Shown piece by piece: positions 33,472 to 39,292 of a DNA stretch of 42,087 bases. This DNA is from a virus (Duplodnaviria > Heunggongvirae > Uroviricota > Caudoviricetes): IMG/VR virus record IMGVR_UViG_2565956712_000007. One strand, given 5' to 3'. The translations under genes and the position numbers were made by a program. The notes beneath the pieces are model-generated. The model was given only the letters and a program-made list of their open reading frames with translations, was not told the origin of the DNA and made no database searches. Position 1 is the stretch's first letter, and every line of letters begins with the position of its first letter.

Positions 33472-33532
33472 CTTTACCCTCGCTTATCCACATAACTTAT
33501 TGATTACATTGATAACTAAAAAGATCGTCGAT

Positions 33533-33994: not shown

Positions 33995-34795
33995 TTACTT
34001 GATAAATCCTGCCGCCTTTCCCCGCCTGTATTCCTCCATCAGCCACTGCGCCGGTGTTATTCCCCCCAGGGTGGCGGCGTTAGGCATACACCCGAAACTT
34101 CGCCCTGGTGGATGGTAAACGTCTCTCCCTGTGTCCGGAGGCGTACTCATGGGTTCTGGCTTTGCCTGTATGCTGATCACCGGATCGGGTATCTGCTGTC
34201 CGGAAGCCACCTTTTTCGCCCAATCATCGAGCAGCCTGCGCGCGTGTTTCTCAACCTCAATCTCGCTAAGCTGGCGCTGATACATTGCACGGCGGGTATC
34301 ACATACGACCCAGTACATAACCGGATGTCGCCACGGGAATCTTTCGGGACCACCAGGATATAAACTTTTTTCCTTGCTGTACCGGTGAAACTCCGCCATC
34401 ACATCGTCAATGGTGACGCCAAGAACCATCTTGCTGTCTTTGCACCACTTGATAAATTGCCCTGGCGACGGCCAGAACGGAGATTCACTGGCGCGGGCGT
34501 GGCGCATACCAGCAGAAACCTGTTCACGGGTTCGGATCCCACCTTCGGCAAACGCAGCAATCCACTGCTGTTTTGCAGCAACTTCCTGCTCTGGCGTCTT
34601 CAGGTTGGTTACCACTGCCGCCGGAAACAGCTGTTTCAGCTGTTTGAAAAGAGCATCAACAAGCCTCTCTGCTGACATGTTCACCACATTGTCATTGTTG
34701 ACGTACTGATGCTCATAACCTGACATGCGAGAAAGGGCTTCTCCGTCACGGTTTTGTATCGCGGTAAAAACGTTGTTCACAAGAAATCCTCCCAT
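33995..34795 (-). CDS. Replication protein, lambda P-like helicase loader
   Basis: Blocks QWIAAF.EGGI.T.EQV.AGMR.AR....PF.PSPGQF..WC, LYP, YW match my recollection of lambda P. Confidence 0.7.
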   Translation of the reverse strand: MGGFLVNNVFTAIQNRDGEALSRMSGYEHQYVNNDNVVNMSAERLVDALFKQLKQLFPAAVVTNLKTPEQEVAAKQQWIAAFAEGGIRTREQVSAGMRHARASESPFWPSPGQFIKWCKDSKMVLGVTIDDVMAEFHRYSKEKSLYPGGPERFPWRHPVMYWVVCDTRRAMYQRQLSEIEVEKHARRLLDDWAKKVASGQQIPDPVISIQAKPEPMSTPPDTGRDVYHPPGRSFGCMPNAATLGGITPAQWLMEEYRRGKAAGFIK

Positions 34796-35592
34796 GCTTC
34801 AGGGCTGTTCCAGTGCGGAACGTTGTTATCAGGTAATGTTGATTGCTTCTGTCTGCTAATCTGCAGCCGCCTTGCCAGCTTCTGCTCCCACTGTGCCTGA
34901 TGGTATGCCTTACCCTCAGCCATCCAGTAAATTCTGAACTCTGCAAGTTCCTGTGCCGTTGGCAGACTGTCCAGGTAGATCCCCTGCAATGAGCTTTTCC
35001 GAAGAAAGTCATCTGATGGCTGCCATTGTTCATGCATGACAAATTTGCCTAATTGCCCTGGCCCACCAGGAGGAACAAAGTTATTCATCACGGCGTTGTT
35101 TGCGCCGGGGTCATGAGGCACAGAATCCCCGCTTTTTGTCCTGCTCTCCCTCTCTTGGTTAAATGACTGGTTATATGACTGGTTCTGGATCCCGTTTTTG
35201 GGATCATTCAACATCCCGTTTTTGGGATCATTCAACATCCCGTTTTTGGGTATATTCCCGTTTCCGGTAACATTACCGTTTTCGGGTTCATTACCCCCTT
35301 CCCGGTTGCCTTTAATGTTCCCGTTTTTGGTTATATTAAGAGAGAAAACCCGTACTCTTTTCGTCGCCCCCTTTCTCTCTCCGGTATCTGAAATAAGCCC
35401 CATTTTCATGAGCGATATAAGCCCGGCCTGCACGGTTTTTTTATTCAGGCAAGTGTCTTTAACGAGGCGTTCTATGCTGGGGTAGCAGAGGTTATATTCA
35501 TCGGCTCTGTCAGCCATCGAGAGCAGTATGAGCTTTAATGACGAGCTACCTGGATCTGTCTCCCAGGCCCAATCTGTTGCATGTCTGCTCAT
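34777..35592 (-). CDS. Replication initiator, O-like, with N-terminal HTH; contains origin iterons
   Basis: N-terminal HTH-like LKLILLSMADRADEYNLCYPSIERL; central Asn/Gly repeats encoded by iterons. Confidence 0.7.
   Translation of the reverse strand: MSRHATDWAWETDPGSSSLKLILLSMADRADEYNLCYPSIERLVKDTCLNKKTVQAGLISLMKMGLISDTGERKGATKRVRVFSLNITKNGNIKGNREGGNEPENGNVTGNGNIPKNGMLNDPKNGMLNDPKNGIQNQSYNQSFNQERESRTKSGDSVPHDPGANNAVMNNFVPPGGPGQLGKFVMHEQWQPSDDFLRKSSLQGIYLDSLPTAQELAEFRIYWMAEGKAYHQAQWEQKLARRLQISRQKQSTLPDNNVPHWNSPEAWEDFL
35189..35337. repeat. Origin iterons: about 7 direct repeats with core CCCGTTTTTGG
   Basis: Two identical 24-bp units ATCCCGTTTTTGGGATCATTCAAC then degenerate units at 19-24 bp spacing. 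Confidence 0.75.
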
Positions 35593-35607: not shown

Positions 35608-35877
35608 TCAGCTTGAATGTTGTGGGGAGGAATTAATCATGATCTGCTTAATCTCAGCCCTGATGCGACGGTTTGATTCCATGGTGCACTCAACACAGTG
35701 TCCGTTGTAAACCCAGCGTTCACTGTCATGTCCGTGCTTACATGGTTTTCCGGTGTAGTAGCGTTTAAGTCCGCGCTTTGCGGCATCAATACGTGTAATG
35801 ATTTCCATGGTAAGCCCTGTTATTAGTATTGGGATTACGGTCATTTTGTGCTGACACAAAAAAAAGATCAACCACAT
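35608..35877 (-). CDS. Small Cys/His-containing protein at the cII-equivalent position (start uncertain)
   Basis: KPCKHGH...NGHCVEC; between tR1-like terminator and O-like gene. Confidence 0.45.
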   Translation of the reverse strand: MWLIFFLCQHKMTVIPILITGLTMEIITRIDAAKRGLKRYYTGKPCKHGHDSERWVYNGHCVECTMESNRRIRAEIKQIMINSSPQHSS

Positions 35878-35887
35878 TTGGTTTTTT

Positions 35888-35904
35888 ATTACCCTTAAGG
35901 TGCT
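35888..35904. promoter_or_regulatory. Operator-like site ATTACC-CTTAA-GGTGCT (degenerate right half)
   Basis: Upstream of gene 35608..35877. Confidence 0.4.
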
Positions 35905-35910
35905 AATAGA

Positions 35911-35936
35911 TATTAAAAGACCGCCGGATGGCGGTC
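35911..35936 (-). terminator. tR1-like intrinsic terminator after the cro-like gene
   Basis: GACCGCC-GGAT-GGCGGTC hairpin followed on the minus strand by UUUUAAUA. Confidence 0.7.
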
Positions 35937-35958: not shown

Positions 35959-36189
35959 TCATGAGTAGAAGAAGTATGCCAGTTCTGCTTTTGAGCGCAG
36001 CCATTGTCTTGTTTTACAGGCTTTAAAAAGCCCATTCATCAATACTTTACCTGGCATTTTGCGCTTACCTGTTAAGTGAGTCTGGATATAGTGACTCGTC
36101 GTTCCGGCTTCCTGTGCGAAGGCTTCACGCTCATCCGGAGTAAGTGCAAGCCAGTGCTTTTTGAAATCGAAATGTCCGTTATCGCTCAT
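35959..36189 (-). CDS. Cro-like HTH regulator (YdaS-type)
   Basis: Small HTH protein divergent from the repressor gene across an operator cluster. Confidence 0.65.
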   Translation of the reverse strand: MSDNGHFDFKKHWLALTPDEREAFAQEAGTTSHYIQTHLTGKRKMPGKVLMNGLFKACKTRQWLRSKAELAYFFYS

Positions 36190-36224
36190 AGCTATTGCCT
36201 GATATTTATTTCAGATAATAAATA

Positions 36225-36289
36225 TTCACCCATAAGGTAACAAAAATCAAGGATAGTTACCCATGAGGTGCATTTACCTGTTGGGTAAT
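36225..36289. promoter_or_regulatory. OR-like operator cluster of three 17-bp sites (36225-36241, 36256-36272, 36273-36289)
   Basis: TTCACC-CATAA-GGTAAC, GTTACC-CATGA-GGTGCA, TTTACC-TGTTG-GGTAAT between divergent cro-like and cI-like genes. Confidence 0.7.
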
Positions 36290-36343
36290 ATTGCTTTAAA
36301 TTGAATCATCTACTGATTCATATATGAGGCGATTTTCCAGAAA

Positions 36344-38354: not shown

Positions 38355-39292
38355 GCAACGACATCGCAAACATCAACGCACCAGTAGACACAGCAATCGC
38401 TGGAACTGCTGCAACTATTTTCAGCCCAGACGGCTTGAACCAACTGATGAAATTCGCCGAGGTAATGGCGCAAAGCCGCGTAACGGTACCGGCGCACCTC
38501 GCCGGGAAACCAGCTGATTGCATGGCCGTGGCAATGCAGGCTGCGCAGTGGGGAATGAACCCGTTTGCCGTGGCTCAGAAAACCCATGTTGTGAACGGCA
38601 CGCTAGGTTATGAAGCCCAATTAGTAAACGCAGTTATCTCAACGATGTCGCCAACAAAAGATCGCATCAACTACGAGTGGTTCGGGCCGTGGGAACGCGT
38701 GATCGGTAAGTTTGTTGAGAAAACATCCAAAAACGGCAATCCATATATCGCACCAGGCTGGACTCTAAAAGACGAAGAAGGCTGCGGTGTTCGCGTATGG
38801 GCAACCATGAAGGGCGAGGATCAACCTCGAGTGCTTGAGTTAATGCTGTCTCAAGCACAGGTAAGAAACTCCACACTTTGGGCCAGTGATCCGAAACAAC
38901 AACTCGCATACCTTGCGACAAAACGCTGGTCTCGCCTGCACTGTCCTGACGTAATCATGGGCGTCTACACCCCAGACGAATTACAGGAAACGGCACCGCG
39001 CGTTGAGCGAGACATTACTCCGCAAACGACCACTGCTGCGGGAATGAACAGTCTGATCAACGCTAAACCAGCGAAAAAGCCTGATGAGCAAACGCGTAAA
39101 TCGGACAGCCGTGATCCAGAAGAAATGCTGATGGCCTTTACCAGCGCAGCGATGAATTACAGCACTGTCTCCGAACTGGATAAGGCTTACAAATACATTG
39201 CACAAAAACTTTCAGATGATGACGAACTGCTGGCAAAAGCCACCGACGTTTACAGCGTTCGTCGGGAAGAATTAAACGAAACATCTATGTAA
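38351..39292 (+). CDS. RecT/Red-beta family single-strand annealing protein
   Basis: QWGMNPF...PKQQLAYLATKRWSRL pattern; paired with exonuclease. Confidence 0.75.
   Translation: MSNDIANINAPVDTAIAGTAATIFSPDGLNQLMKFAEVMAQSRVTVPAHLAGKPADCMAVAMQAAQWGMNPFAVAQKTHVVNGTLGYEAQLVNAVISTMSPTKDRINYEWFGPWERVIGKFVEKTSKNGNPYIAPGWTLKDEEGCGVRVWATMKGEDQPRVLELMLSQAQVRNSTLWASDPKQQLAYLATKRWSRLHCPDVIMGVYTPDELQETAPRVERDITPQTTTAAGMNSLINAKPAKKPDEQTRKSDSRDPEEMLMAFTSAAMNYSTVSELDKAYKYIAQKLSDDDELLAKATDVYSVRREELNETSM

Follow-up and report, generated by a model that had tools for sequence, protein, structure and literature searches.

The DNA analysed here, a stretch of 42,087 bp from IMG/VR record IMGVR_UViG_2565956712_000007 (hereafter the window), is a phiV10-like E. 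coli prophage that is collinear with Escherichia phage phiV10 (Uetakevirus) in reversed orientation and extends from the lysis genes as far as the beginning of the integrase gene. Within it, an array of six short repeats lies in the linker-coding part of the replication-initiator gene, and comparison with related phages suggests that this array region is probably the phage replication origin, embedded in the gene for its own initiator, with the repeats as putative initiator-binding iterons. Three lines of evidence lead to this reading: selection acting on the repeats as DNA, co-inheritance of the repeats with the N-terminal domain of the initiator, and the placement of the equivalent block at the position of lambda ori in Edwardsiella phage GF-2. 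An initial annotation of this DNA had already proposed origin iterons inside an "O-like" gene. Its core idea is upheld by sequence comparison, but the homology to lambda O implied by that name and a suggested link between GATC sites and a phage methylase are not.

The six units share a core of the form CC-N6-GG (CCRAAAAYGG on the gene strand), span 35191-35337 and encode residues 86-134 of the initiator, in the linker where the repeats had been placed by the initial annotation. The exact core CCCGTTTTTGG (plus strand) is present in four copies in the whole window (35191, 35215, 35239 and 35320), all within the array, and degenerate copies are found at 35257 (CCCGTTTCCGG) and 35275 (ACCGTTTTCGG). 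The pattern CCRAAAAYGG, derived from relatives, has six matches in the window, five of them within 35192-35330, compared with an expected 0.55, and none of 100 shuffles reached six. The lone core match outside the array, CCAAAAACGG at 38727-38736 (plus strand), is probably a chance occurrence. The 24-mers at 35189-35212 and 35213-35236 are identical, as originally described, and are reported by Tandem Repeats Finder with a period of 24, 2.6 copies, 100% match and a score of 124. Start-to-start spacings are 24, 24, 18, 18 and 45 bp, each a multiple of 3, and not the 19-24 bp first given. Read on the minus strand, the units encode peptides of the type N-x-[P/T]-x-N-G (NITKNG, NEPENG, NVTGNG, NIPKNG and two of NDPKNG), in agreement with the Asn/Gly repeats noted earlier. 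The strongest units are 16-bp dyads (ATCCC-AAAAAC-GGGAT), and two units have perfect 5-bp arms.

The number of repeats had initially been put at about seven. Six units are solid, but the seventh (CCGGGAAGGG) is merely a formal fit to CC-N6-GG, is not conserved and falls in the most polymorphic stretch. Among close alleles, 6 of the 35 sites between 35286 and 35320 are polymorphic, every one of them in 35293-35303, compared with 3 of 60 sites in the iteron cores. No part of the gene is more polymorphic in these close relatives than the interval separating iterons 1 and 2 (gene strand GGCAACCGGGAAGGGGGT), where several variants change the amino acid. Within iteron 3, an A-to-G change at position 35264 (Glu to Gly; core CCGGAAACGG instead of the usual CCGAAAACGG) is found in one of 45 close alleles of the same length. 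Natural alleles carry the 24-bp unit in one to seven copies, and other blocks are duplicated as well. Since units are 18 or 24 bp long, slippage alters their number and leaves the frame intact, which accounts for this copy-number variation.

The classical argument from reading frames could not be applied because all units here lie in one frame, whereas lambda iterons lie in different frames; synonymous sites were therefore used instead. Approximately 140 loci with a matching N-domain, taken from viral contigs and phage records, were reduced to 18 genes whose N-domains are <80% identical, and units were chosen by amino-acid pattern alone (N-x-[PTSA]-x-x-G), giving 60 distinct units. The P/T/S/A codon is NCC in all 60 (CCC 41, ACC 13, TCC 5, GCC 1), compared with 206 of 1078 codons for these residues (19%) in the remainder of the genes (Fisher p = 5e-41), so that the silent third base is fixed while the amino-acid-changing first base drifts. 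Likewise, the Lys/Glu codons in units are A-ending in 44 of 44 cases (AAA or GAA), against 541 A-ending and 254 G-ending codons outside units (p = 1e-7). The two central residues of the unit vary (K/E/N/D/V, then N/I/F/Y/S), and the six central bases remain A/T-rich, giving a consensus in relatives of AAY-RNW-NCC-RAA-AWY-GGK-A. These codon patterns show that selection maintains the repeats as DNA, and not as peptide.

A second repeat module, which was absent from the initial annotation, directly follows the last iteron. It consists of 11-mers, two of which (GAACCAGTCAT and TAACCAGTCAT) are 12 bp apart (Tandem Repeats Finder: period 12, 2.4 copies of the 11-mer (G/T)AACCAGTCAT); phiV10 has one copy more than the window phage. 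The 11-mer GAAYCAGTCAT is found after the array in Vibrio, Edwardsiella and metagenome relatives. In at least nine relatives two copies lie 13 bp apart and hence in two reading frames (Q-N-Q-S-L and E-P-V-I), which is direct evidence for conservation as DNA. The Acinetobacter clade has GAATCTWTCAA twice at this position, followed by GAATCTAAAAATAAAAAA, in DNA of 64-74% AT. The family-wide pattern GAAYCWNYCAW, found right after the last unit, is present in the window at 35175-35185 and 35163-35173.

The initiator gene encodes a homologue of phiV10 p43 (annotated as "replication initiation protein"), with 97-99% identity to p43 and its relatives, and is present in 424 of 5,426 complete E. coli genomes. 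Pfam assigns HTH_36 (PF13730; residues 18-67, E 1.8e-10) to its N-terminal part and the DnaT DNA-binding domain (PF17948; residues 184-252, E 1.2e-15) to its C-terminal part. When the N-domain alone was modeled with an alignment, the result was a winged helix of high confidence, and disorder is predicted for the segment that the repeats encode; single-sequence AlphaFold2 on the whole protein gave a pLDDT (predicted local distance difference test) of 37. A fold search returned the generic winged-helix fold only, with no specific tie to any known initiator. The C-domain (residues 180-265) resembles residues 85-170 of E. coli DnaT (phmmer, PDB 9zbt, 6aep, 4ou6 and 2ru8; E ~1e-19 to 1e-21).

The array accompanies the HTH_36 N-domain in phages of E. 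coli, Edwardsiella, Vibrio and Acinetobacter, regardless of the C-domain. For example, identity with the window protein over the first ~87 residues is 46-58% for Edwardsiella phage GF-2, Vibrio phage Her, Acinetobacter phage AP22 and the PPompW prophages, whose C-termini are unrelated, whose partner genes differ (P-like, DnaB-like and others), and all of which carry related arrays at the equivalent place. Arrays in relatives include three copies of GATCCCAAAATTGGGAT, five of CCCGAAAACGGTAC, and GAACCCAAAAACGGAAT, among others. Of 120 representatives of the family with a length of 200 amino acids or more, 85 have at least two units, and a DnaT C-domain is present in only 17 of 119. In the Uetakeviruses SPN1S and Tyrion, by contrast, the same DnaT-like C-domain is joined to different N-domains, and the initiator gene lacks repeats of this kind. 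GF-2 provides a natural chimera, in which residues 137-280 are 62% identical to residues 156-299 of lambda O, a stretch that in lambda starts just after the iterons plus the AT-rich tract. The winged helix, repeats and 11-mers of GF-2 therefore occupy the place of the lambda N-domain, its four iterons and its AT-rich tract. The HTH_36 head and repeats of GF-2 are joined to the lambda-O-type C-domain at SENS(D/G)ESSD (L004 1867-1914), a recombination junction just past the origin block.

We defined the combination of an HTH_36 domain and CC-N6-GG units as a family in this study, and 555 clusters (50% identity) match its initiator at E <= 1e-10. The window protein has an HTH_36 winged helix ending in DTGERKG-x-T-K-x-V-x-V, and its gene carries six in-frame AAY-RNW-NCC-RAA-AWY-GGK units right after the N-domain, where the family definition asks for at least two. 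A wider proposal, which we offer tentatively and hold at slightly less than an even chance, is that the winged helix, the CC-N6-GG iterons and the frame-independent GAAYCAGTCAT form a portable "initiator head plus origin" cassette. Such a cassette would be present in hundreds of gammaproteobacterial phage initiator clusters and would recombine freely with helicase-recruiting C-domains (DnaT-like, lambda-O-like and others). In this proposal the 11-mer would represent an origin element not described before, serving as an unwinding or loader-entry site or as a site for a host factor, and would stand in for the lambda AT-rich tract without being AT-rich. Many database entries of the family end at 90-160 amino acids, within or just past the repeat region, and these short entries could represent contig breaks or miscalled genes at the repeats.

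The arrangement resembles lambda ori in several respects. Each origin (putative in the window phage) occupies the central part of the initiator gene, with the DNA-binding N-domain on one side and the C-domain on the other, and a P-type helicase-loader gene follows immediately downstream. In both arrays the iterons are dyad-symmetric, with C/G-tract arms on either side of an A-rich center (lambda ATCCCTCAAAACGAGGGA, window phage ATCCCAAAAACGGGAT); they share the ATCCC and GGGA(T) arms, and the A-tract is oriented alike relative to the gene. Six directly repeated, internally dyad-symmetric and presumably initiator-binding sites are found where at least four characterize the lambda type. The annotated lambda iterons (ATCCCTCAAAACGAGGGA, ATCCCCTAAAACGAGGGA, ATCCCTCAAATTGGGGGA and ATCCCTCAAAACAGGGGG) are spaced 20, 24 and 23 bp and are followed by an AT-rich tract (PMC7466680), and relatives differ in iteron number, lambda having 4 and Stx phages 6 (PMC7466680).

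There are also clear differences from lambda. The offset from CCC to GGG is 9 bp in the window phage and 12 bp in lambda, and units 18 or 24 bp apart in a single frame contrast with lambda spacings of 20, 24 and 23 bp in different frames. In place of the ~40-bp AT-rich tract of lambda, the window phage has 2-3 copies of GAAYCAGTCAT, an 11-mer of only moderate AT content. The N-domain is HTH_36 instead of the Phage_rep_O of lambda, and the C-domain is DnaT-like. The window initiator has no Phage_rep_O match at Pfam E <= 0.01, whereas lambda O gives Phage_rep_O, and BLASTP of the initiator against lambda O detected no similarity (best E 0.072 over 17 residues). The label "O-like" therefore holds by analogy only. 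The element appears to work like lambda ori, yet it falls outside the lambda type on initiator homology.

Other known systems are less similar. Among iteron-type origins with winged-helix Rep initiators (RK2 TrfA, pPS10 RepA, R6K pi, F RepE; Vibrio chromosome II RctB), those of plasmids are intergenic, often contain DnaA boxes and are read by Rep proteins with two winged-helix domains, whereas the window phage has a single winged-helix domain, dyads inside a coding region and no DnaA box nearby; structural similarity of its N-domain to such initiators is no higher than to winged-helix proteins generally. The nearest perfect DnaA box, which is also the sole one in the window (TTATCCACA, 33484-33492), lies about 1.7 kb from the iterons, between two minus-strand open reading frames, one of them DUF1064. 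The likeness to E. coli DnaT (primosomal protein I) is confined to the C-terminal single-stranded-DNA-binding domain (E ~1e-20). DnaT has neither a winged-helix N-domain nor cognate repeats and acts in PriA-dependent restart; the full-length DnaT architecture was not found in the initiator, of which the N-terminal two thirds are winged helix and repeat linker. The database names "primosomal protein I" and "DnaT" thus fit only the C-terminal third of the phage initiator. HTH_36 (PF13730) proteins have been noted in replication regions (Stx-phage "Eru" modules) of E. coli prophages (Llarena et al. 2022, PMC8951638), and the PPompW prophage homologue carries related units. The main text of that paper (PMC8951638) does not contain the words iteron, "origin of replication" or "repeats". 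Table 1 lists the features of the region.

Table 1. Features of the initiator gene, the putative origin and the adjoining loader gene (window coordinates).
Feature	Position	Strand	Remarks
Replication-initiator gene, 271 aa	34777-35592	-	Open reading frame (ORF); HTH_36 N-domain, repeat-encoded linker and DnaT-like C-domain
N-terminal winged-helix DNA-binding domain, aa 1-88	35329-35592	-	Presumed iteron reader
Iteron 1 (AAT ATA ACC AAA AAC GGG)	35320-35337, core 35321-35330	-	
Variable spacer with doubtful "seventh unit" (CCGGGAAGGG, 35296-35305)	35293-35319	-	
Iteron 2 (AAT GAA CCC GAA AAC GGT)	35275-35292, core 35276-35285	-	
Iteron 3 (AAT GTT ACC GGA AAC GGG)	35257-35274, core 35258-35267	-	
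Iteron 4 (AAT ATA CCC AAA AAC GGG)	35239-35256, core 35240-35249	-	
Iteron 5, 24-bp unit (ATG TTG AAT GAT CCC AAA AAC GGG)	35215-35238	-	16-bp dyad ATCCCAAAAACGGGAT 35213-35228
Iteron 6, 24-bp unit, same as iteron 5	35189-35214	-	Dyad ATCCCAAAAACGGGAT 35189-35204; adjoins 11-mers
Cluster of three GATC (35188, 35202, 35226), in or beside the two 24-mers	35188-35229	none	Created where GAT meets CCC in the 24-bp units
Second repeat module	GAACCAGTCAT 35175-35185; TAACCAGTCAT 35163-35173; partial copy TAACCAAGAGA 35151-35161	-	Candidate site of unwinding or of a second factor
DnaT-like C-terminal domain, aa 180-265	34798-35055	-	phmmer against PDB sequences
Lambda-P-like helicase-loader gene	33995-34795	-	Pfam Phage_lambda_P, E 1.5e-56

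If the array is the origin, initiation may proceed in a manner similar to that at lambda ori. Winged-helix dimers of the initiator would bind each dyad, with half-sites about one helical turn apart and a central A-tract that would favor bending, and several occupied units could assemble into an O-some-like nucleoprotein. The adjacent 11-mer module (35151-35185) might then be the point of strand opening or helicase entry, and host DnaB would be recruited jointly by the DnaT-like C-domain and the lambda-P-like protein, whose gene lies just downstream. As at lambda ori, the site would be traversed by transcription of the early operon.

Several observations weigh against an origin at this place. 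The stretch 35140-35200 flanking the array, which includes the 11-mer zone, ranks no higher than the 83rd-88th percentile of the window for duplex instability (GC 0.42-0.45), and a duplex-stability scan of the window found no strong AT-rich unwinding element adjoining the iterons; nearby, stability is lowest in the intergenic stretches 35860-35920 and 36180-36340. Alleles differ widely in their number of units, so that individual units are dispensable. The 18- and 24-bp spacings have no helical phasing. In 45 close alleles, third-position polymorphism affects 1 of 26 sites in the cores and 11-mers and 36 of 208 elsewhere, a trend only (p = 0.09) in an underpowered comparison. An additional role for the units at the peptide level is possible alongside the DNA function, since all of them are in frame. 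The phiV10 RefSeq record carries no origin feature, and no description of this origin was found in the literature searched, which left most subscription journals outside, so that an older mention (e.g., in the epsilon15 or phiV10 genome papers) is possible.

It should also be considered that binding sites for the initiator could serve autoregulation and not initiation. The units would then be intragenic operators or roadblocks, or copy-control sites acting by handcuffing or titration, with the actual origin somewhere in the AT-rich intergenic DNA nearby. Constraint on the DNA and co-inheritance with the N-domain suit any cognate binding site, and the strongest AT-rich DNA is indeed in the intergenic stretches named above, with no marked unwinding element inside the gene. 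These stretches, however, lack the core motif, whose only outlying copy in the window is at 38727. Moreover, the block stands precisely at the lambda ori position in GF-2, the array is directly flanked by a second conserved and frame-independent DNA element, as an origin would require, and the equivalent sites in lambda act as the origin (PMC7466680). On balance we regard initiator-binding sites with an origin elsewhere as unlikely. That the repeats merely encode a flexible Asn/Pro/Gly-rich linker, growing and shrinking by slippage and leaving DNA repeats as the trace of recent in-frame duplication with no DNA function, agrees with spacings that are all multiples of 3, with the predicted disorder, with a 24-bp unit present in 1 to 7 copies beside other duplicated blocks, and with the conservation of N, P and G residues in the peptide. 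Silent sites would nevertheless be expected to have been randomized, because the lineages are only 40-60% identical in the N-domain, and what is seen instead is a fixed synonymous third base alongside a first base that varies and changes the amino acid (60/60 NCC; 44/0 A-ending Lys/Glu). With the adjoining 11-mer also preserved in two reading frames, a purely peptide-level explanation is very improbable.

We give still less weight to the idea that the repeats serve another purpose, as part of an antisense gene, as an RNA element, as terminator hairpins on the antisense strand, or as sites for some factor of host or phage that is not the initiator. An antisense ORF of 95 amino acids does lie at 35198-35485, but no antisense frame is open across the family and even the best frame is stopped in 8 of 18 relatives. 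No Rfam match was found at E <= 1, which likewise speaks against an RNA element as the cause of the constraint. On the plus strand, GGGAT of one unit can pair with ATCCC of the next, followed by a T run, giving terminator-like hairpins at 35199-35218 and 35223-35242; these are weak (6 pairs with only 3 G-C), and apart from such hairpins from adjacent units a promoter and terminator scan returned nothing beyond shuffle expectation. Finally, the repeats follow the initiator N-domain specifically, and not phage type or host.

The initial annotation had also pointed to GATC in several units and to its possible relevance to the adenine methylase of the phage. Three GATC sites are present in or beside the two 24-mers (3 in 42 bp), and a density of at least 3 GATC per 60 bp is reached at only two other places in the window, but the connection with the methylase is not supported. 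GATC is not enriched in the window as a whole (162 observed, 163 expected). No GATC occurs in the units of Vibrio and Acinetobacter relatives, and it is not a conserved part of the unit, because relatives use GAA, AGT, AGG, ATA or GTA at that codon. The phage methylase (39980-40642, plus strand) belongs to the MT-A70 family (E 3.4e-22) and not to the Dam (D12) class. In any case, these GATC sites would be methylated by host Dam. A Dam/SeqA-regulated origin of the oriC or P1 ori type is not supported on these grounds, as GATC is neither conserved nor enriched and the methylase is MT-A70.

The P-like loader gene is the next gene downstream on the strand of the initiator, with a 19-bp overlap with the end of the initiator gene. 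The C-terminal tail VPHWNSPEAWEDFL of the initiator (window 34777-34824) is the same in the initiator of Enterobacter phage Tyrion (L227 1657-1707), despite the different N-domain. A P-like gene follows the initiator in both the window phage and Tyrion, whereas SPN1S has another tail and no P-like gene, and the shared tail VPHWNSPEAWEDFL may be a contact with the loader. Three of 435 E. coli matches are on records labeled as plasmids; one of these, NZ_CP079771.1 (41,027 bp; H80), is approximately phage-sized, which suggests an excised or episomal circular form of the phage in that assembly. This Uetakevirus replication module, with one 24-bp unit fewer, is found at the end of the 138-kb record PP488543.1 (L002; phage BP9, classed as Vequintavirus), and it is also present in the 115-kb unannotated record PP350014.1 (phage PH444). 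Both PP488543.1 and PP350014.1 may be assembly chimeras.

If this interpretation is correct, it locates the origin of phiV10/Uetakevirus prophages and, by extension, that of an initiator family of 555 clusters whose members are annotated merely as "helix-turn-helix", "DnaT", "primosomal protein" or "pyocin large subunit-like". For annotation, this would provide a simple rule: NCC-RAA-AWY-GG units followed by 11-mers. Changes in unit copy number would explain differences in gene length from strain to strain, and the repeat array may account for the many database entries that stop within ~100-160 amino acids. More generally, the lambda solution, in which the origin lies within the initiator linker, would also exist with a DNA-binding domain that has no detectable similarity to lambda O, and the origin and the domain that reads it would move together as a single unit.

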